29,540 nt of DNA from an uncultured Leptospirales bacterium. GTDB lineage: Bacteria > Spirochaetota > UBA4802 > UBA5550. The stretch is taken from assembly GCA_964396355.1 (NCBI GenBank), contig CAYNFB010000011.1:1-29540 (forward strand), in the 5' to 3' direction. Each line of letters begins with the position of its first letter. Within the stretch, counting starts at the first letter, position 1. The notes beneath the pieces were generated by a model, which was given only the letters and a program-made list of their open reading frames with translations, made no database searches and had not been told where the DNA came from. This document shows positions 17,539 to 29,540 of the stretch, in pieces. A program made the position numbers and the translations under genes.

Positions 17539-18852
17539 ATGTTTAATAAAGAAATAGAATCAATGCCTGAAATAAAAATGAAAGAGCTTCAGCTTGAGAG
17601 ACTTAAGTGGTCAATTTCTCACGCCTACAACAATGTTGCACTTTATCGAAAAAAATTCGACCATGCGGGATTTCATCCTGACCAGTTCAGGTCTCTCGAT
17701 GATATGAGGCGTGTTCCTTTCCTGACCAAACAGGATATGAGAGACAGTTATCCATTTGGACTCTTCGCTGTTCCTTTAAACAAGGTAGTGAGGGTTCACT
17801 CATCTTCAGGGACGACAGGAAATGCTACAGTAGTAGGATATACTAAGAATGATACAGAGGTTTTTGCCGAGGTTGTGGCAAGGAGTCTTGCCTCATACGG
17901 TCTTGATGAAAATGATATAATACAGAATGCCTACGGATACGGACTGTTCACCTGTGGCCTTGGACTGCACGACGGAGTGGAAAAACGCTGCGCCATGACC
18001 GTGCCAATCTCAGGAGGCAATACTCCCCGGCAGCTTATGCTTATCAAGGATTTTGGAACGACCGCACTCTGTTCAACTCCTTCATATGCGCTTAATATTG
18101 CAGACTTTATCGAAAAGAACATGCCTGATTATGATATTAAATCAACGAAGCTCCGGGTCGGCGTATTCGGTGCAGAGCCCTGGACCGAGGAGATGAGACT
18201 TGAAATTGAAAAAAGACTGGGGATAGATGCATACGATATCTACGGTCTCAGCGAGGTAATCGGACCCGGCGTGTCGGCCGAGTGTTCCGAGAAAAACGGA
18301 CTTCACGTATTCGAGGATCACTTTTACGTAGAGATAATAGATCCTGAAACAGGAGAGATTCTGCCTGAAGGCGAAGAAGGAGAGATCGTATATACATCTC
18401 TTACCAAGGAGGCCTTTCCCGGAATCAGATACAGATCAAAGGATATAACAAGGCTCTATCATGACGGATGTAAATGCGGCAGGACTCTGGTAAAAATGGA
18501 CAAGGTTACCGGAAGATCCGATGACATGCTGATTATAAGGGGTGTCAATGTCTTCCCGAGTCAGATAGAGTCGCTTCTCATGCAGACTAAGGGGATAGAG
18601 CCTCATTATCAGATCATTGTTGACAGAAAAGGTTCTATGGATGATATTGAGGTGATGGTTGAGGTCAATGAGACGGTTTTCTCAGATGAGATAAAGATAC
18701 TCAACGGACTGTCGAAAAATATAAGCGACCGCTTTAAGAGCACACTGGGAATATCTGCAAAGATAACTCTCGTTGAGCCTCAGACTATTCCCCGGAGTGA
18801 GGGTAAGGCGGTACGTGTTGTGGACAGAAGAAAAAATCAGGGGGATAAATAA
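17539..18852 (+). CDS. paaK: Phenylacetate-CoA ligase
   Basis: HSSSGTTG P-loop, [64 protein letters not shown]. Confidence 0.93.
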
Positions 18853-18853
18853 T

Positions 18854-19291
18854 ATGAATGTAACTCAGCTTTCCGCCTTTGTGTCGAATAAGCCCGGTCA
18901 TCTTCAGAAAGTGCTTAAGGTTCTGGCCGATCAGGACATTAACATAATAACTCTGACCATTGCAGAGACTTCAGATTTCGGTATCCTGAGGATGATTGTA
19001 AATGATCCCGAAAAGGGACTGGCGGCTCTCAAGGAAAATCATATCACATGTTCAACAACGGATGTTCTTGCTCTTGAAATCAGCGATACTCCCGGATCGC
19101 TGTTTAAGGCGCTGGATGCATTTGCCGATATGAATCTGAATATTGAGTATATGTACGCCTTTACAGAGAAGCGGCATGGAAAGGCCGTTATGATTTTCAG
19201 ATTTGAAGATATTGAAGAAGCCAAAACCGCTCTTGACGGTAAGGGCTATAATATTGTTAGAAAGATAGATATAATCGGAGATAATAAATGA
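18854..19291 (+). CDS. Tandem ACT-domain protein
   Basis: QLSAFVSNKPG...INI, DFGILRMIV, DTPGSL...NIEYMYAF; typical paaK neighbour. Confidence 0.9.
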   Translation: MNVTQLSAFVSNKPGHLQKVLKVLADQDINIITLTIAETSDFGILRMIVNDPEKGLAALKENHITCSTTDVLALEISDTPGSLFKALDAFADMNLNIEYMYAFTEKRHGKAVMIFRFEDIEEAKTALDGKGYNIVRKIDIIGDNK

Positions 19292-20844
19292 CAAAGAAAG
19301 TGATGTTGGGAAATGAGGCAATCGCAAGAGGAGCCTGGGAAGCCGGATGCACTGTTGCAGCAGGATATCCGGGGACTCCAAGTACGGAGATTCTGGAGAC
19401 AATTGCCAGAGACTACCGCGAAATCAAGTCGCAGTGGTCGCCTAATGAGAAGGTTGCCCTGGAAGTTGCGGCAGGAGCATCCATTGCCGGAGCAAGATCT
19501 CTTGCAACTATGAAACACGTGGGCCTCAATGTAGCCGCAGATCCTCTCTTTACATTTTCATATACCGGAGTAAACGGTGGGTTTGTCATTATAAATGCAG
19601 ATGATCCCGGAGCCTGGAGTTCCCAGAACGAACAGGATAACAGACATCTGGCAAGGGCCGCCAAGGTTCCCATGCTTGATGCATCGAGCCCCGAGGAGGC
19701 CAAAGAGTTCACCAGACGCGCATTTGAAATCTCCGAGCAGTTTGACCGGCCGGTCATCGTGAGAATTACAACCAGAATTGCTCATTCTCAGGGATTGGTT
19801 GAGCAGGGTGAACGGGAGAATGTTCCACTAAAGGAATTTATCAGGGATCCTAAAAAATATGTAATGATACCCGCCCATGCAAGGCCTAAACATAAATTTA
19901 TTGAAGAGCAGCAGGTGAAGCTTACTGAATTTTCCTGTAATGCAGGTTTCAACAGAATTGAAATGGGGAATAAGAAGCGCGGAATTATAACAAATTCAGT
20001 GGCATATCAGCACGTAAAGGAAAAATGCCCCGATGATTCAGTTCTAAAAATCGGAATGGTATGGCCCATGCCTGATGATCTTATCCGGGAATTTGCATCA
20101 CAGGTGGAGGAACTCTATGTTGTTGAAGAACTTGATCCTTTCATCGAAGACTATGTGAAAGCAATGGGCTATAAGGTTACCGGTAAGGACATTATCCCTA
20201 TGTGCGGAGAGCTGACTCCTGAAATCATAGACATGGCTCTGAACGGAAAATCTCCTGAAAGGGCACTGCCTGATTACGATACAGAGCTTCCGTCAAGACC
20301 TCCGGGACTCTGCAAGGGATGCCCTCACTCCTTCGTCTTCAATGTTTTGAAGAAACTTGATCTGACAGTTAACGGTGATATAGGCTGCTATACTCTTGGG
20401 GTTCTTCCTCCCTATTCCGCCATGCATACTCAGGGATGTATGGGTGCGAGTATAGGAATGCATCTGGGTTTTGAAAAAGCCAGAGGTGAGGAAATGGCTG
20501 CCAATTCGGTTGCCGTTATAGGAGACTCAACATTTGTCCATTCAGGAATAACTCCGCTTATTGATATGGTCTACAACAAGGGTACCGGAACTGTGCTGAT
20601 TCTAGATAACAGGGTAACTGCAATGACGGGCCAGCAGGACAATCCGGCTACCGGAGTTACACTGATGGGAGAGGAGACTCATGAGCTGAATCTTGCTCTT
20701 CTCTGCGAATCTGTGGGAGTTAGACGTGTTGTTACAGTTGACCCTAAGAATACAGAGGAGTTTGAAAGGATTGTGAAGGAGGAGGTTGCAGCCAGAGAAC
20801 CTTCAGTTATAATATCAAAAAGAAAGTGCATACTGAAAAAGTGA
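19288..20844 (+). CDS. iorA: Indolepyruvate:ferredoxin oxidoreductase alpha subunit (short form, no C-terminal ferredoxin domain)
   Basis: GNEAIARG, GYPGTPSTE, MKHVGLNVAAD, CKGCPH, GDIGCY, GDSTFVHSG TPP motif. Confidence 0.93.
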   Translation: MTKKVMLGNEAIARGAWEAGCTVAAGYPGTPSTEILETIARDYREIKSQWSPNEKVALEVAAGASIAGARSLATMKHVGLNVAADPLFTFSYTGVNGGFVIINADDPGAWSSQNEQDNRHLARAAKVPMLDASSPEEAKEFTRRAFEISEQFDRPVIVRITTRIAHSQGLVEQGERENVPLKEFIRDPKKYVMIPAHARPKHKFIEEQQVKLTEFSCNAGFNRIEMGNKKRGIITNSVAYQHVKEKCPDDSVLKIGMVWPMPDDLIREFASQVEELYVVEELDPFIEDYVKAMGYKVTGKDIIPMCGELTPEIIDMALNGKSPERALPDYDTELPSRPPGLCKGCPHSFVFNVLKKLDLTVNGDIGCYTLGVLPPYSAMHTQGCMGASIGMHLGFEKARGEEMAANSVAVIGDSTFVHSGITPLIDMVYNKGTGTVLILDNRVTAMTGQQDNPATGVTLMGEETHELNLALLCESVGVRRVVTVDPKNTEEFERIVKEEVAAREPSVIISKRKCILKK

Positions 20845-20852
20845 GGGGCAAA

Positions 20853-21422
20853 ATGAAGAATGTAATATTTTCCGGAGTGGGCGGTCAGGGAGTCATCCTG
20901 GCCAGCAAGGTGCTCATGGAAGTGGCAATGATAGAGGGCTTTGATGTTAAGGAATCGGAAGTTCACGGTATGGCCCAGAGGGGCGGAAGTGTGGAGTGTA
21001 ATGTGCGATTCGGTGAAAAGGTCTATTCTCCTCTCATCCCGAAGGGAGAAGCGGATTTTGTTGTGAGTTTTGAATTTCTTGAATCAATGAGAAAAATTGA
21101 ATATCTCTCAAAAGATGCATTTCTTATCGTAAACAAAGAGCAGATAAATCCTACACCTGTAGAGATGGGTGTCATGGAGTACCCCCCGGACATTGAAGAG
21201 TGGCTCAAGAAAAATTTTGTAAACACTGTGATTGTGGATACAAAGGAGGCTCTCAAAGAGGCGGGCACGAAGAAGGCGCTGAATATAGTGATGCTCGGAT
21301 GTCTTTCTAAATATCTGGATTTCCATGTTAATGTATGGGAGGACACGATAAAGTCTCTGGTAAAGGAAAAATTTATAGAGCAGAATATAAAGGCATTTCA
21401 TCTGGGAAGAGAACTCGTGTAA
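20853..21422 (+). CDS. iorB: Indolepyruvate:ferredoxin oxidoreductase beta subunit
   Basis: GVGGQGVILAS, SEVHGMAQRGGSV, NIVMLG, NIKAFHLG. Confidence 0.93.
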   Translation: MKNVIFSGVGGQGVILASKVLMEVAMIEGFDVKESEVHGMAQRGGSVECNVRFGEKVYSPLIPKGEADFVVSFEFLESMRKIEYLSKDAFLIVNKEQINPTPVEMGVMEYPPDIEEWLKKNFVNTVIVDTKEALKEAGTKKALNIVMLGCLSKYLDFHVNVWEDTIKSLVKEKFIEQNIKAFHLGRELV

Positions 21423-21506: not shown

Positions 21507-22613
21507 ATGGACGAAAAAATCTCTGAGCTGAAGGACGATAAACTCTATAATCGAATTAAACTCAGGCTCACCGCTGCAGATCTCCTTAAAGATATTCTGC
21601 TTATTTCAATACTGGCATTTTCCGGAATTTCTAATTATGCAGCTGATCTTGCAAGTCTATGGAATAATCAGTATCTGGACTTCTTAACATTTATCATGCT
21701 TCTTGGTGTGGTGTTTTCTTCTATTGGCATTCCGCTGGACTACTATGGATCCTACGTGGTGGAACACAGATTCGGCCTGTCCAATCAGAGCTTTCTCAGG
21801 TGGGTGGGAGAGAAGGGCAAGTCCACACTGGTAGGATTTGTAATAATGCTTCCTCTTTCTCTTCTGTTCTACTTTTTCCTTAAGAGCGCAGGTGAACTCT
21901 GGTGGCTTTACTTTTCTATTGTTCTATTCACTTTCTCTGTACTTCTTGCGAAAATTGCTCCGGTTATTATAATGCCTCTCTTCTATACTTTTACTGAAAT
22001 CGAAGAGGGGGAGGTGAAGGAGCGCATCAGGGCAGTTACAGACAATGCAGGCATCGGGATTAAGGGCATTTTTAAGTTTGATATGAGCAAAAATACAAAA
22101 AAGGCAAATGCCGGTTTTACGGGACTGGGCAGCAGCAAGAGAATAATTCTGAGCGACACACTGCTTGATGATTTTACTCCCGGTGAGATCGCCATTGTCT
22201 TTGCCCATGAGGCAGGGCATTACAATAAGAAGCATATTCTGAAGAATCTTGTACTCAGTACAGTTATTATATTCCTTACCTTTTATCTCTGCTCGCTTTT
22301 CTACTCTGCGTCAATATCCTCTATGGGGTTTACCGAAATATATGATCTGGGCGCACTGCCTGTTCTTCTCTTCTACCTTACAGTGTCCGGCCTTGTGATG
22401 ATGCCACTTACTAATTACATCTCAAGGAGGTACGAGGTTGAGGCCGATACCAGCGCACTCGAACTTACCGGGGACAGGGAAAGCTTTATCTCGGCAATGG
22501 AAAAACTTGCAGATATAAATCTTGCCGACAGAGATCCTTCCCCAATCGTTGAATTTTTCCTCTACAGCCATCCTTCTATAAAGAAGAGAATTGAGTTTGC
22601 CGGTAAATTCTGA
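21507..22613 (+). CDS. M48 (Ste24-like) membrane zinc metallopeptidase
   Basis: NAGFTGLG, HEAGH, EVEAD, YSHP; multiple TM segments. Confidence 0.92.
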   Translation: MDEKISELKDDKLYNRIKLRLTAADLLKDILLISILAFSGISNYAADLASLWNNQYLDFLTFIMLLGVVFSSIGIPLDYYGSYVVEHRFGLSNQSFLRWVGEKGKSTLVGFVIMLPLSLLFYFFLKSAGELWWLYFSIVLFTFSVLLAKIAPVIIMPLFYTFTEIEEGEVKERIRAVTDNAGIGIKGIFKFDMSKNTKKANAGFTGLGSSKRIILSDTLLDDFTPGEIAIVFAHEAGHYNKKHILKNLVLSTVIIFLTFYLCSLFYSASISSMGFTEIYDLGALPVLLFYLTVSGLVMMPLTNYISRRYEVEADTSALELTGDRESFISAMEKLADINLADRDPSPIVEFFLYSHPSIKKRIEFAGKF

Positions 22614-23578
22614 TGAGAGAAAGCAAAGATTATTCGGCCGTTTTTCTTGATATAATATTTGCTTTCACCTATGCACTCATCCCGTTTATCATCCGGGCTG
22701 CAGGAGATTCCGCTTTTCTCTCTCCTCTTGTTCATCTGCGGGCGGGAGCGGCAAATCTCTTTGTCTATCCTCTCACGTGTATGGTTATGATACATCTGGT
22801 GTCATCAGACAGGCAGAGGCAGGACGGAGTGAATTTTCTGGGTACTATATTGTGGAAGTGGTATTCCTGGCCCATGGGCATACTCTTCTGGATATGTCTT
22901 TTCTTCCACAGCGTGTGGATGATAATGAGCTTCGGATGGGGGGAGATGATTTACGGCCCGGAGATCTATTCTCATGCCACAGCCTTCGACAGCGCAGTTA
23001 TGATCGCAGGAGGTGTTTTCTTCTTCCTCTTTTCTATTTATCTTACAGTATCGCTCAGTGGTTTTAAAATTAATAAAATAGGTAATTTTATAAGTGAGTG
23101 GCTTCCTTCAAAGGGGGAAGCCCTGTCGATGGTTGTACTGAAGTGTTCAGTGCTGATTTTTATTGGGCCTGTCTTCCTGCTTGTTGAAGCAGCCATACTG
23201 CTGGTTATTCCGGCTTATCTCTTCTGTATAATGTGGGTATATTTTTTCAGCAGATCAGGTGAGCAGAATAAAAAGCTCCATCTGCCTTTTAAAGAGCTTC
23301 CATTTCCTGCGCCTGCAGGCAGGATTATTCTATATATATACGCATTTCTCATGGCATTTTTCTTTGATGCAGGAGTTGCGCACATGGTCGGCATAAGCCG
23401 GGAGCCCGGCGGTTATATGCCCTTCTGGCTTGCAGCTCTCTTTGCTCTTGGACTCTTCTATATTCCCTACAGAACATTCTTTAATCTCGGCAGCGGCAGA
23501 AACAAACTATCATGGATTACATTTTTTACAGGTATTGCTATAGTTTTCATAGAGACTTTAAACAGGTTTCAGCACTGA
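22613..23578 (+). CDS. Hypothetical polytopic membrane protein
   Basis: 321 aa, about 8 hydrophobic segments; start overlaps the M48 stop (TGATG). Confidence 0.75.
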   Translation: MRESKDYSAVFLDIIFAFTYALIPFIIRAAGDSAFLSPLVHLRAGAANLFVYPLTCMVMIHLVSSDRQRQDGVNFLGTILWKWYSWPMGILFWICLFFHSVWMIMSFGWGEMIYGPEIYSHATAFDSAVMIAGGVFFFLFSIYLTVSLSGFKINKIGNFISEWLPSKGEALSMVVLKCSVLIFIGPVFLLVEAAILLVIPAYLFCIMWVYFFSRSGEQNKKLHLPFKELPFPAPAGRIILYIYAFLMAFFFDAGVAHMVGISREPGGYMPFWLAALFALGLFYIPYRTFFNLGSGRNKLSWITFFTGIAIVFIETLNRFQH

Positions 23579-23587
23579 ATTATTTGA

Positions 23588-23627
23588 ATAATAAGGACAA
23601 GGGGCTTCAGCCCCTTGTCCTTATTAT
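23588..23627. terminator. Bidirectional terminator between convergent genes
   Basis: Perfect 18-bp stem ATAATAAGGACAAGGGGC-TTCA-GCCCCTTGTCCTTATTAT. Confidence 0.85.
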
Positions 23628-23629
23628 CT

Positions 23630-26251
23630 TCAGTCTTTCTTGTTTTTTATTTCTTTATACCACTCAGAGTGATGTTTTTTTGCCCACTTTTCGCTGACCA
23701 TTCCGTCTACCATGGTTCTCCATGTGCCGGGATTCGCAAGAGTTCCAAGATACGCATGTCCCAGAATCGTAGCAAGAAAAAATACCGAACCGAGTCCGTG
23801 AATAGTCGATATCAGACAGGTAAGAGTGAGAGGCAGTGATGATTTAAAGATCATCAGTATACCGGTTACACCCATTACTGCCGTGAGAATCAGTATCCAC
23901 CAGAATGCATATTTCTGACCTGCATTGAGTCTTCCGGCGGGAGCCTCGACATTATCGTCTCTGGTCAGGTATCCGCCCTGGACCTCCATCCACTGCTTAT
24001 CATAATCCTGGAATTTTGCATCTTTCACCCAGAGCTTGTAACTGTAGATGCTTGCTGCAATAAAGATCAATCCATAGACTATATGCCAGTTTACTGCAGA
24101 CTGCTGATTGTCAAAGAAGAAGCCCAGCATTGCGGCATTATTGTAGAAGAAGATTCCTCCGGTAAATGCCAGCCCAATGAATGTAATCATCCTTGCAAAG
24201 TGAGTCCATCTTTCTGCGATGGTGAATCTCTCTATGGTGGCCGGCTCAAGAAGCAGATCGGCGCCCTTTGGCCCCCTTCCTGTATAGTGAATCATCAGGA
24301 AGAATCCTATCACAATGAGAAATATGCTGGCGTATGGAGTGACTATCGCCTGATGAAACATGTTCACGTAGAAGGAGAACGGGTTGCAGCCAATCAGTCT
24401 TCCGTTTCTTGTGAACTCAGGGACACCCTCTTCATTCCATAGTCTTGTAAGAGTGTAGTTGCGAAATACCTGCCCGTCTAGCCCGTGACAGTCCAGACAT
24501 CCGTCGGCTCCAAGAGCTTCGCTGGCTGGAGCTACATTGTGATTTATGTTGAAGGCCTCGGCCCTGCCCACCCACGTTGTATCATCTTCACCGATTAGCT
24601 CATCACTCTCATTGAGATGATAGAGTTTTCCAAAGAAATGCATCTGAGGATCAACCTTTGTAAACCTTTTGTTGTCCTTCAGTGTTTTCTTCAGTGTAGA
24701 GAGAAAGAGCTTAATCTCTTCTTTCTTATACAGTTTCGGCTTTCCTGCAAAGGGCCCTTTCTTATATGGCTGTTTTGTTATTTTGCCCTTCACCATATTG
24801 TAGGCCTTCTTAATCTCCTTCATGAAGAGAGGGTAGTATATGCCGTCGCCGTTTCTGTTTGAATATATCAGACCTGCCGGAAATGAATTTACCGGTTCAA
24901 TTTTATGCGTCTTGTGGTTCCTCGCATATCTCGGGATCCATTCATTATAGGCCGGAATCGGAAGCAGTTTTGATTTAATTTTCTCTTCCAGCGTGGTGTT
25001 AGCCTGGTTCTTAAATTTTCCGAAGTTAATCATGTCACCGGAAGTTACATCAAATGTTGATCCTCCGTTAGCATTAAGGCGTGGGATGTGACATGTTTCA
25101 CAAGTCAGTTTTTCAAGGTGATTGGGCCGTATAGTCTTGTGTTTAGGCCTGGTCGCGCCCATTACTCCTTTCTCGTGACATTGTTTACACGTGAGCATCC
25201 CTTTTCCGTCCAGATCATCCCGTACGGTGCTTACGTTTTCATTTCCCTTGGCAAAGTTATGCTCCTTGTCAATTGAGGGATGGCAGTGAACGCATTCCAG
25301 TCCGCCCATGTTGTGAATATCGTGATTCTTCGGATCATTCCAGGAGAAGCCTCTCTTCTTTCTGTCAGAGAAAGCATGACAGAAAGTACAGTTTCTTGAT
25401 GAGGGGGGGTAGTCCAGATTAACTGCAAGTTTTCCGTCCTCATTGAAGAGACGTTTATTATAGGTTACAGCAGGAGTTACTCCCGACAGGACCTTGCTTT
25501 TTTTGCCATTCTTGTCGGTAATCTTAGCAACAGTACCGCGTACAATTCCGATTCCCGATGCCTGAATTGCCGCCCATTTGAAATTCCATAACTTCAGCTG
25601 TTTGTTTCTTTCCTTAAAATTATAGCCGTCAATATGACATATGAAACAGTCGGCCTCTACAACACCGGACTTGTCCCAGTGGCTCTTGAAGTAATCACCG
25701 TCCAGTGATTTCCTGAGTGAAGGATTTGCCTTTAATGTTTTATCGAACCTCTTTCCGTCTCTGTCAAATTCCAGTCCTCCGCCTCCGGGGTGGCATCCTC
25801 CGCAGCCCGGATTCCCGATCTTATTCAACGATCCTGCCTGTACAAACTGGAAAACAGTTATGTCAATTTCATCCGCTGTCTTATTCTTTTTTTTCGCCAA
25901 CTGGCGAAAGGAAGGGGGTCACATCTTCCCCATCATACCGTCAGACAGCACCCAGGGTTTGTCCTTGCTGAACGTATCGCTTATTTTATCCCAACCCTGC
26001 TGGAAGTGGTAGCCTTTCGTGATTTCATCATAGTTATGGCAGCCCTTAGCTCCGCAGGTTTTTCTTGTGCTCATGACTTTTCCTGCATTCAGTCCGGATA
26101 TCGGATTGATTATTTCTCCTGTTTCAGTCCTGAGATGAAAGGGGGGGCATTCCCTGAATTTAATCTGTGCACTCAGATCAGAAAAATAAAACACTCCGGC
26201 AATAATAAATGTAATAGAAGCCGATAGCTTCAAATACGACGGCTTTCTCAT
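23630..26251 (-). CDS. Putative selenocysteine-containing octaheme cytochrome c fused to FdnI-like cytochrome b (873 aa with UGA read-through)
   Basis: ORFs 25919..26251 and 23630..25900 are in frame and joined by TGA + PPSFRQ. AGGAGG RBS and signal peptide occur only on the first part. One CX4CH and seven CXXCH; C-terminal His-bearing TM helices (RWTHF, NWHIV, GRLNAGQK, TIHG, GHAY). Confidence 0.85.
25884..25918 (-). promoter_or_regulatory. Candidate bacterial SECIS element
   Basis: UGA-CCCCCUUCC-UUUCGCC-AGUU-GGCGAAA: 7-bp perfect stem, loop starts 16 nt after UGA, G at the second loop position. Confidence 0.75.
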
Positions 26252-26725
26252 GCAAATACCTCCTTTTATCAGAAATGAATTTTATCTATATGTGGTCTTT
26301 TAAAAATATTAAATCCGGAGGTAGTATTCAAAAAATATTCATCTGATTAGTTTTTTGTTATTATTATTTTGAATAAAAAAACGTAACAACTTAGCTGTTC
26401 AGCATAAGAATTTGTCAGGATTGCTCTGCTTTTATGATTAGAGATGTTGTTTTTTTATTACTTACTGACAAAGAAATAAAAAAGTTAGTCAAAACGAATT
26501 GTATTGTGAAGAGGTAGTTCCTTTCATACAATTGGATACGGCCACCGTAAGAAAATCAATACTTGAATGCTGTGTATTAAAAATGAGTTTGGCGGTTGAT
26601 TGTAATTTTGGTAATTTTATTGCTACAGACCTGAATTCAAGGCGGGTTCTTTATGACGAAGTATTTGTCTTTGTTTTTCACTCGGCCTGTTCGGCGGGGG
26701 TGAGGAGCAATATATTTTAATTCTT

Positions 26726-28709: not shown

Positions 28710-29540
28710 TTACCTGTTTTTAAACACTCTTATGATAATAAAAGACAGTATTATATTTAATAATAATACTGCTCCTAAGACGAGCCATGATATGAATAGC
28801 AGATATACTCTTCCTGCCATGTAATTCCACCCTATCTGGTGATCCAGAAAGTAGTCAGTTAAGCCCGGGAAGGTCAGCACCAAAGTGAATAGTGCTGCAG
28901 TCTCGATGAGTGAGAACAGTATAACCGCACCGCTGATCCTGATGAGGTATTTTCCGTAAAGAGCCCTTCTCCTGGATAGAATAAATATTATCCAGCCTGA
29001 TAAAAGGAAGATTATAAACCCGATTAAGCCTGCTGTCAGCCCGGATTTTAATATTGCAGCTCCGGCAGGTTTGTAGAGTGAAATGGATATATTTGAAGAG
29101 GGCAGTCCCTGCCACTTTGCCGTGAGGGAACTGCCTGAATCTTTAAATTCCCCGGGGTGCACGGCAATTTTCCATCCTTCAGGGTAGCGTAATTCTGCAG
29201 TGAGTTTTCCGAATTTGTTCCAGGTTCGGGCAGGTGCGAGAATGTATGAAAGCTGCCATACTTTTGATTCTGTTCCGGTGATTTTGCTGTTGGAATATGC
29301 CGTAGGTTTTGCTCTGTACTGCACTTCAAGCTTATGGTCTCCACGGGCCATCTGTATTGTAAAACCTGTTTGTATCGGTTTACCTGCTCTGCGGGGAATG
29401 TCTTTATTCTCTCTATTGCTTATTGTGTAATAGGGGATATCGATATTATCTTTAAATCCGGGAGTTGATATTGGTGGAGTCCAGGATTCAGGAATTTTTG
29501 AGTATACCCGATGTCCCTTTATTTTCTTTCCATTGAATTT
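28710..29540 (-). CDS. Hypothetical protein with C-terminal multi-TM anchor (5' end outside the window)
   Basis: The frame stays open from ATG 29351 to the window end (KFNGKKIKGH...TIQMARGDH); three hydrophobic segments at the C-terminus. Confidence 0.75.
   Translation of the reverse strand, partial: KFNGKKIKGHRVYSKIPESWTPPISTPGFKDNIDIPYYTISNRENKDIPRRAGKPIQTGFTIQMARGDHKLEVQYRAKPTAYSNSKITGTESKVWQLSYILAPARTWNKFGKLTAELRYPEGWKIAVHPGEFKDSGSSLTAKWQGLPSSNISISLYKPAGAAILKSGLTAGLIGFIIFLLSGWIIFILSRRRALYGKYLIRISGAVILFSLIETAALFTLVLTFPGLTDYFLDHQIGWNYMAGRVYLLFISWLVLGAVLLLNIILSFIIIRVFKNR

Follow-up and report, generated by a model that had tools for sequence, protein, structure and literature searches.

A widespread, misannotated selenocysteine-containing variant of the bc-type respiratory cytochromes, encoded by an uncultured Leptospirales bacterium

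The contig CAYNFB010000011.1 of an uncultured Leptospirales bacterium (assembly GCA_964396355.1), whose full length of 29,540 nucleotides is the window analyzed here, carries a minus-strand gene (26251..23630) that runs from an ATG at 26251-26249 to a stop TGA at 23632-23630 and comprises 873 codons plus the stop when read through an in-frame TGA at codon 111. Its predicted product combines a signal peptide, eight heme-c motifs, and a membrane-embedded cytochrome b domain in one chain. The gene belongs, as a selenocysteine (Sec)-containing variant, to a class of bc-type respiratory cytochromes that is already known, and the variant is both widespread and misannotated. An initial annotation of the window, made from the sequence alone, had described an octaheme cytochrome c, a Sec codon, and a cytochrome b fused in a single gene; all elements that it listed were borne out, and the strand was corrected to minus. 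The protein joins two recent themes of anaerobic respiration: fusion cytochromes of the bc type that link quinones to the periplasm, and the heme-selenocysteine catalysis described in 2026 for the enzyme MccSep. With a Sec-heme domain and a quinone module in the same polypeptide, it provides a testable model for how chemistry resembling that of MccSep might be fed from the membrane.

Evidence for selenocysteine at codon 111

The in-frame TGA lies in the context DGMMGKM-U-PPSFRQLAKK, with U denoting Sec. A search of a protein collection returned 605 relatives. The closest of these, about 80 proteins, are 700-760 residues long and start just past the TGA position; more distant relatives of about 850 residues span the whole query, and in 36 full-length proteins the column aligned to codon 111 holds Tyr (19), Cys (15), Ser (1), or Arg (1). 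We scanned one genome per species, found a relative encoded in 277 genomes, and kept the best 80 loci. Codons were counted in the genomic DNA of 82 genes, the window gene included: the equivalent of codon 111 is TGA in 47, TAC or TAT (Tyr) in 26, TGT (Cys) in eight, and a Ser codon in one. With relatives in 277 of the scanned species genomes and the Sec type in about half of the best 80 loci, the family represents a widespread and unrecognized group of selenoproteins. Upstream of the TGA, the frame stays open in every TGA gene and encodes a conserved signal peptide and the heme-1 module. The hosts of these genes belong to at least six phyla and comprise Leptospirales metagenome-assembled genomes (MAGs), Thermodesulfobacteriota (including Desulfobacca, Syntrophobacterales, Fundidesulfovibrio, and Desulfoluna limicola), Chloroflexota, Ammonifex thiophilus, Eisenbacteria, and Delongbacteria.

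A short hairpin follows the codon in all of these genes. Its stem of 7 bp begins 9 nt past the UGA, its AGUU apical loop begins 16 nt past the UGA, and the sequence CCN CCN UCN UUU CGC CAG UUG GCG AAR directly after the UGA is common to all TGA genes. Residues R116, Q117, L118, and A119 are encoded by CGC-CAG-TTG-GCG in 40 of 40 TGA genes. Tyr- and Cys-type genes encode the same R-Q-L-A-K-K peptide with mixed synonymous codons, as seen for Arg (CGC 14, CGT 5, CGG 4, CGA 3, AGG 1), Leu (CTC 11, CTG 5, TTG 4, and others), and Ala (GCC 21, GCG 3). In a codon-share test over 86 conserved columns of four- or six-fold degenerate residues in the 47 Sec-type genes, the major codon had a mean share of 0.62, and L118 and A119 were the only columns with a single codon. 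R116 is CGC in 46 of the 47 genes, and R116, L118, and A119 all lie inside the hairpin. The Ammonifex gene (L049) has one compensatory change in a stem pair, from U-A to C-G. No SECIS (selenocysteine insertion sequence) family of Rfam matched at the gathering threshold or at E≤10, and the single-sequence fold of the hairpin region taken alone is not significant (z = -1.18). The evidence for the hairpin is comparative, but strong.

We consider it scarcely credible that the TGA genuinely terminates translation or disables the gene, which would leave two products or a pseudogene, or that it codes for a standard amino acid. Such a reading could point to gene callers and public annotation, which split the gene at this codon (proteins P0001-P0082 begin just past the TGA), to the missing Rfam match, and to the Sec machinery, of which nothing was seen in the window: no tRNA was found and no sel gene seen on the whole 29.5-kb contig. 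Against it stand the same TGA with the frame kept on both sides in 47 genes across phyla, a hairpin fixed at synonymous sites in TGA genes alone, and the portion downstream of the TGA, which has seven heme-c motifs and no signal peptide of its own and can therefore be matured only within the read-through product. TGA is also the ordinary stop of 10 of the 24 long open reading frames (ORFs) in the window; the host thus uses the standard code, which rules out an alternative genetic code.

Three features by which bacterial selenoproteins are recognized are present, namely a conserved in-frame UGA, Cys-containing homologues, and a downstream stem-loop with G/U in its apical loop. On these comparative grounds we hold with high confidence that codon 111 is a genuine Sec codon. 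The initial annotation had proposed the same, and the recurrence of TGA at one codon across the family, together with the frozen synonymous sites of the hairpin, now backs that proposal. One MAG contig (L080) carries a pair of Sec and Cys paralogues about 4.6 kb apart (regions 1754 and 6413), which read GKF-U-LFSYRQ (TGA) and GSF-C-TVPYRQ at the site and have Cys at the equivalent of position 35 in both.

Public records cut the gene at the UGA and give a protein of 700-760 aa that starts at an internal codon just past it, named "formate dehydrogenase subunit gamma" or "cytochrome b/b6 domain-containing protein" (P0002-P0082, e.g., P0077 of Fundidesulfovibrio soli and P0044). The N-terminal piece of 100-130 aa is called separately or not at all. 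In the window, the ORF of 756 aa that gene callers start at a TTG at 25900 was rejected as an artefact of stopping at the TGA. An exact-match lookup of the window protein found no second contig.

An octaheme domain fused to an FdnI-type cytochrome b

The eight heme-c motifs were found exactly as the initial annotation had given them: C66GAKGCH (aa 66-72), C150GGCH (150-154), C202FICH (202-206), C288TFCH (288-292), C320VHCH (320-324), C355KQCH (355-359), C384ETCH (384-388), and C585LDCH (585-589). The CxxCH-x-GGG and D-CxxCH features that it had pointed out are likewise present. Motif 1 (window 26036-26056) is of the form CX4CH in the window protein and in 10 of 43 Sec-type relatives, and CX2CH in the remaining Sec-type and all Tyr- and Cys-type relatives; several lineages have acquired the two extra residues. 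The sole export signal for all eight motifs is the N-terminal signal peptide, cleaved between ...DLSA and QIK and encoded upstream of the TGA. The exported N-terminal part amounts to about 610 residues for eight hemes, or about 76 residues per heme. Invariant histidines outside the motifs, which are candidate distal ligands, are six for the eight hemes (H82, H313, H331, H371, H378, and H571).

For a structural view, an AlphaFold2 model was made of P0089, a full-length homologue of the Cys type, and not of the window protein itself. The model (predicted local distance difference test, pLDDT, 82.7; predicted template-modelling score, pTM, 0.75) has five membrane helices and a beta-rich insert between hemes 7 and 8. 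Foldseek with this model against the PDB gave FdnI as the only match and none for the heme domain, and PDB sequence searches, run with a profile and with a single sequence, returned just FdnI and weak local matches to NrfA. An HMMER scan with aa 112-636 yielded 625 clusters (50% identity) at E≤1e-3 and 80 at E≤1e-30, with the more distant clusters sharing just a core of hemes 2-7 or 3-7.

Profile matches of the heme-c domain to multiheme families were below threshold. Over aa 198-399, the octaheme tetrathionate reductase (OTR) profile TIGR04315 scored 41.9 bits (cutoff 375) and the MmcA profile TIGR04314 scored 41.8 bits (cutoff 250); MtrC domain II/IV reached 28 bits against a cutoff of 30. 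The protein shares with OTR the number of heme motifs and a weak, though significant, local match over hemes 3-7 (E ~6e-11, aa 198-399), yet the scores for OTR and MmcA are about a tenth of the cutoffs and the heme spacing outside the core differs. The kinship with OTR or MmcA entertained in the initial annotation thereby reduces to a distant resemblance over hemes 3-7. Among ten shorter distant relatives, none reached the cutoff for a true OTR.

The periplasmic domain is followed by a linker membrane helix that ends in HYTGRGPK and takes the chain to the cytoplasmic face. The C-terminal domain matches Ni_hydr_CYTB (PF01292; E=1.6e-22, 80.6 bits against a cutoff of 30.1) and the formate dehydrogenase gamma family TIGR01583 (132.7 bits against a cutoff of 115.85), and the C-terminal part of the P0089 model matches 1kqf_C in Foldseek with E=1e-9 and a TM-score of 0.81 on the target. 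In a residue-by-residue alignment to Escherichia coli FdnI (1KQF chain C), H18, H57, H155, and H169 correspond to H684, H723, H818, and H832, and the menaquinone-site motif on the cytoplasmic side, N110-A-G-Q113-K, corresponds to N776-A-G-Q-K780. Both the heme-b ligands and the NAGQK motif are invariant across the family. The membrane helix with HYTGRGPK and the four-helix, FdnI-like domain of the initial annotation are thus confirmed, with TIGR01583 above its cutoff and the heme-b histidines intact. As judged from the model, the predicted topology is coherent: a periplasmic heme-c domain, one helix to the cytoplasm, and then the four FdnI helices.

Sec, Cys, and Tyr types

We divided the family by the residue at position 111, which is Sec, Tyr, or Cys in the types named accordingly. 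Position 35 differs along with it: Sec-type sequences have Cys in 38 of 43 cases, His in four, and Ala in one, Tyr-type sequences have His throughout, and Cys-type sequences have His in seven of eight. Met106 is invariant where position 111 is Sec or Cys (51/51) and is Phe or Leu in 23 of 25 Tyr-type genes. Conserved residues particular to Sec-type genes are Q85, H508, H538, and several lysines. In a neighbour-joining tree, the Tyr, Cys, and Ser genes form a single derived clade nested among Sec-type lineages, which makes Sec the apparent ancestral state and Tyr an apparent later substitute, accompanied by other changes. Because most Sec-type sequences have no lipobox before C35, a role of this residue as a lipoprotein Cys was rejected. 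The natural series of Sec, Cys, and Tyr at position 111 is a ready set of variants for probing what the residue does.

Relation to characterized systems

Fusions of multiheme c-type cytochromes with HydC/FdnI-like b domains have already been described (PMC6295460), so the initial suggestion that the cytochrome b fusion itself may be undescribed does not hold. This CbcL/MtrH/MtoC class was found in a 2018 survey in 15 phyla, with 3-23 hemes and 416-1034 aa, and contains quinol oxidases as well as quinone reductases (PMC6295460). The window protein resembles its members in the signal peptide, the N-terminal multiheme c domain, and the C-terminal di-heme b domain on one chain, in the link to the quinone pool, and in being widespread; the number of hemes varies within the class. 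In CbcL (GSU0274) of Geobacter sulfurreducens, nine hemes are carried by a periplasmic domain that is joined to a di-heme b domain resembling HydC/FdnI. Those nine hemes, all bis-His, sit in a c domain of about 250 residues (28 per heme), and the protein has six membrane helices, whereas the window protein has about 610 residues for its eight hemes, a beta-rich insert, and five helices; by these descriptions, the c domains are set apart. The one-chain design of c and b domains that defines the class is present, while the nine hemes and six helices of CbcL proper are not. We found no published report of Sec in the CbcL/MtrH/MtoC class.

Sec in a multiheme cytochrome is known from MccSep/ExtKL (GSU2937-2936), a polysulfide and selenite reductase characterized in 2026 (PMC13510729). 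MccSep is a soluble five-heme tetramer in which Sec325, located in a D-G-U-P loop of an Ig-like domain, lies beside a heme ligated by the strictly conserved Cys239; its electron donor is unknown (PMC13510729). Like the window protein, it is a periplasmic multiheme cytochrome c with one Sec encoded by an in-frame UGA, a short downstream hairpin, and a Pro after the Sec; Cys-type relatives, similar anaerobic sulfur-cycling hosts, and a split annotation are further points in common. Its Sec is, however, near the C-terminus, whereas Sec111 is near the N-terminus of a protein with eight hemes and a fused cytochrome b, and the strict conservation of Cys239 contrasts with C35, which varies in the present family. 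The initial annotation had left homology to ExtKL undecided: no match to NF040886 was obtained at E≤1 and the architecture is different. MccSep/ExtKL is an analogue, not a relative.

The closest characterized relative of the b domain, FdnI, shares the TIGR01583 family, the four heme ligands, the N-x-G-Q motif, and the fold. It differs in its partners: FdnG and FdnH genes adjoin the cytochrome gene neither in the window nor in the related loci, and electrons would pass instead through an octaheme domain on the same chain and one more membrane helix N-terminal to the b domain. To call the protein "formate dehydrogenase subunit gamma", as public records do, is therefore misleading. A second member of the Ni_hydr_CYTB superfamily, PhsC (NF011582), gives a weak match (E=0.009) that reflects resemblance at the superfamily level, and has as its partners the molybdopterin and iron-sulfur (FeS) subunits PhsA and PhsB instead of a heme-c domain.

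The cytochrome-type selenoproteins catalogued in a 2026 review are ExtKL, the GSU2204 family, and an OTR-family protein; nothing like the present fusion is among them. Our literature searches found no published description of selenocysteine with CbcL, or with an octaheme domain, cytochrome b, and quinol. Selenocysteine in a multiheme c-cytochrome b fusion appears to be undescribed.

Proposed function and alternatives

The function that we put forward, with about an even chance of being right, is that of a self-contained menaquinone-linked enzyme acting on a periplasmic sulfur or selenium compound. Sequence and comparison show that the general secretory pathway exports the N-terminal part of the protein, to which the eight c-type hemes are attached, and that UGA 111 is very probably decoded as selenocysteine under the direction of the downstream hairpin. 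One membrane helix then leads into the four-helix cytochrome b of the FdnI type, in which the heme-b histidines and the menaquinone-site motif are present. On the proposed reading, electrons would move between the menaquinone pool and the periplasmic hemes, making the protein a quinone-coupled oxidoreductase in one polypeptide that needs no partner subunit. In the Sec-type clade, Sec would form a catalytic site beside one heme, to which the clade-specific C35, M106, H508, H538, and extra lysines may contribute. Most probably, menaquinol would reduce polysulfide or S0, thiosulfate, tetrathionate, or selenite at this site, and the membrane potential would help drive the reduction, as it drives quinol oxidation toward low-potential sulfur acceptors in the FdnI-related PhsC. 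Tyr-type relatives have probably lost the Sec chemistry and would now be plain electron-transfer modules. Of the candidate "self-contained quinol-linked redox enzyme" in the initial annotation, the single chain stands, the quinone-site motif of its FdnI-like part proves intact, and its role as an enzyme is one that we, too, infer from sequence. The gene was also said to stand alone, and the neighbourhood analysis agrees: no partner gene is conserved across the 82 related genes.

A menaquinol-dependent reductase of sulfur or selenium compounds is favoured because the sole characterized heme-Sec enzyme, MccSep, carries out such chemistry, because the hosts are sulfur-cycling anaerobes (for the Sec type they include Fundidesulfovibrio, Desulfoluna, Ammonifex thiophilus, Desulfobacca, and Syntrophobacterales), because additional basic residues and histidines mark the Sec-type clade, and because a thiol- or selenol-containing DsrE-like protein recurs as a neighbour. 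This protein of 120 aa (PF02635) is encoded on the same strand at a distance of 4-630 nt in 11 Sec-type loci, upstream of the cytochrome gene in some genomes and downstream in others. Its CKAC motif is CKA-U in three genomes, with a TGA codon followed by a hairpin (Table 1); DsrE-like selenoproteins as such are already known. An enzyme-like character is further suggested, from sequence and model, by the roughly 76 residues per heme, the beta-rich insert, the six invariant histidines for eight hemes, and the H508, H538, and lysines of the Sec type.

Several observations weigh against an enzyme of this kind. The DsrE-like neighbour occurs in only 11 of the 47 Sec-type loci, all of them in Thermodesulfobacteriota, is not found in the window, and has no signal peptide, hence it is cytoplasmic. 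Sec-type genes do not all keep C35 (38/43), the Cys that might act as partner or heme ligand. Within the Tyr/Cys branch, position 111 is most often Tyr, which cannot serve as a chalcogen nucleophile; Sec chemistry is thus not what defines the whole family. The PDB and Foldseek searches gave no enzyme relative for the heme domain, some Tyr- and Cys-type loci adjoin a beta-barrel and a second multiheme gene, which hints at plain electron transfer, and the evidence for the substrate is indirect.

The strongest competing explanation, which we regard as possible, is that the protein is purely an electron-transfer module of the CbcL/MtoC type, connecting menaquinone with periplasmic cytochromes or an outer-membrane conduit in either direction and acting on no small-molecule substrate. 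Residue 111, as an anionic O, S, or Se donor, would then ligate or neighbour one heme and tune it to a very low potential. The architecture is typical of the quinol oxidases and quinone reductases of the CbcL/MtoC/MtrH class, and the alternation of Tyr, Cys, and Sec at position 111 would be expected of a ligand or tuning residue more than of a nucleophile. The ligand count also comes out at eight for eight hemes when residue 35 (His or Cys) and residue 111 are added to the six invariant histidines. Some neighbourhoods point the same way. In Zixibacteria and Ignavibacteria (L039:2331-5249, L071, L069), the Cys/Tyr-type gene is preceded by a multiheme c-cytochrome b fusion of about 970-1000 aa, which in turn follows a predicted beta-barrel of about 580 aa and a small ORF of 135-150 aa, and from their sequences these groups look like an extracellular electron-transfer cluster. 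In Fundidesulfovibrio, the gene adjoins an FeS protein resembling HmcB. Sec is, on the other hand, costly and almost always catalytic in known selenoproteins, and we know of no natural Sec-ligated heme reported to date. The large periplasmic domain with its many residues per heme and beta-rich insert is unlike the compact nine-heme domain of CbcL, the His and Lys residues specific to the Sec type suggest an anion-binding pocket, and no cytochrome partner is conserved near Sec-type loci.

Less probable, in our view, is that the protein works in the direction of FdnI, so that a periplasmic donor (sulfide, polysulfide, thiosulfate, or reduced periplasmic cytochrome c3) is oxidized at the Sec/heme site and electrons pass via the b hemes to menaquinone in a redox loop. 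The best-matching characterized relative, FdnI, runs this way, and the window protein retains its quinone site. Sulfate reducers and syntrophs are numerous among the hosts, and such organisms must pass electrons from their periplasmic cytochromes on to menaquinone, as the Qrc complex does. Quinone reductases occur beside quinol oxidases in the CbcL/MtoC class, and the chemistry of MccSep has been related by its authors to the reverse of thiosulfate oxidation by TsdA/SoxAX (PMC13510729). The sequence itself carries no signal on direction, however; MccSep, the only characterized Sec-heme enzyme, is a reductase, and PhsC and CbcL show that this family of b domains also oxidizes quinol.

More tentatively, the Sec-type protein could be a complete respiratory chain in one polypeptide, in which a cytochrome b that oxidizes menaquinol feeds a heme-Sec active site reducing polysulfide, S0, or another sulfur or selenium compound, which would make it the second heme-Sec catalyst after MccSep, of independent evolutionary origin, and the first with a built-in electron supply, or else its residue 111 could be a selenolate heme ligand. 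If the latter is true, residue 111 would be axial to a c-type heme and exchangeable in evolution with thiolate and tyrosinate. Cultured carriers of the Sec type, namely Fundidesulfovibrio agrisoli, F. soli, Desulfoluna limicola ASN36, and Ammonifex thiophilus SR, make tests of these ideas feasible.

Gene features and genomic context

The coordinates of the gene and its elements are given in Table 1. The ribosome-binding site, the AT-rich upstream region, and the strong terminator of the initial annotation were all recovered: the 250 nt upstream of the gene have 25% GC, compared with a window average of 43.5%, and the terminator hairpin is common to the cytochrome gene and a convergent gene that ends at 23578. 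This convergent gene (22613-23578, plus strand) encodes a protein of 321 aa with many hydrophobic segments that has no Pfam or NCBIfam match.

Table 1. Elements of the cytochrome gene in the window, followed by DsrE-like genes at related loci
Feature	Position	Strand	Basis
Complete gene, 873 codons plus stop	23630..26251	-	Full-length Tyr/Cys homologues without the TGA align end to end
Ribosome-binding site AAGGAGG, 7 nt before the ATG	26259..26265	-	Sequence
Signal peptide of the Sec secretory type, aa 1-28, MRKPSYLKLSASITFIIAGVFYFSDLSA, cleaved before Q	26168..26251	-	Sequence; upstream of the TGA
Periplasmic octaheme c domain, aa 29-636	24344..26167	-	Motifs; weak multiheme family matches; P0089 model
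UGA codon 111, read as selenocysteine	25919..25921	-	TGA at the aligned codon in 47/82 related genes
SECIS-like hairpin UUUCGCC-AGUU-GGCGAAA	25892..25909	-	Present in every TGA locus; codons fixed in TGA genes alone
Linker membrane helix, about aa 637-656, ...IFLIVIGFFLMIHY	24284..24343	-	Hydropathy; helix 586-621 of the P0089 model
FdnI-type di-heme cytochrome b domain, aa 673-871, four membrane helices	23639..24235	-	Profiles, Foldseek, FdnI alignment
Intrinsic terminator hairpin, 19 bp, -34 kcal/mol, then U-rich tail	23587..23628	-	Folding energy
DsrE-like genes, Sec forms	L017:9593-9955, L025:4535-4897, L032:12515-12890
DsrE-like genes, Cys forms	L004:8121-8483, L019:9487-9846

Neighbouring regulators and additional genes recur at some of the related loci. 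A sigma-54/PAS regulator is nearby in nine of them. In Fundidesulfovibrio soli (L081:6717-9943), a four-cluster FeS protein of 331 aa resembling HmcB/HybA is encoded upstream of the Sec-type gene on the same strand, together with a protein of 141 aa without a family match, and a divergent sigma-54/PAS activator adjoins; the same arrangement of FeS protein, 141-aa protein, and activator is present at L028 and L037. A gene with an AIRS domain next to the Fundidesulfovibrio copy was considered as SelD and proved to be ThiL instead.

In the window, the cytochrome gene is flanked by LepA on one side and by an unassigned membrane protein and an M48 peptidase on the other. The LepA is 82-85% identical to LepA proteins of Spirochaetota/Leptospirales MAGs, and among the best 80 loci kept, the three closest homologues of the cytochrome gene are from Leptospirales MAGs. 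The spirochaete-like host suspected earlier is in keeping with both observations, and by these sequence comparisons the host is an uncultured member of the Spirochaetota. Beyond lepA, an ORF of 213 aa (28710-29351, minus strand) has no Pfam or NCBIfam match. Elsewhere in the window (17539-21422, plus strand), an AMP-binding enzyme resembling phenylacetate-CoA ligase is followed by a 2-oxoacid:ferredoxin oxidoreductase with a fused alpha/beta subunit of 518 aa and a gamma subunit of 198 aa, which is consistent with an anaerobic spirochaete that ferments or degrades amino acids.

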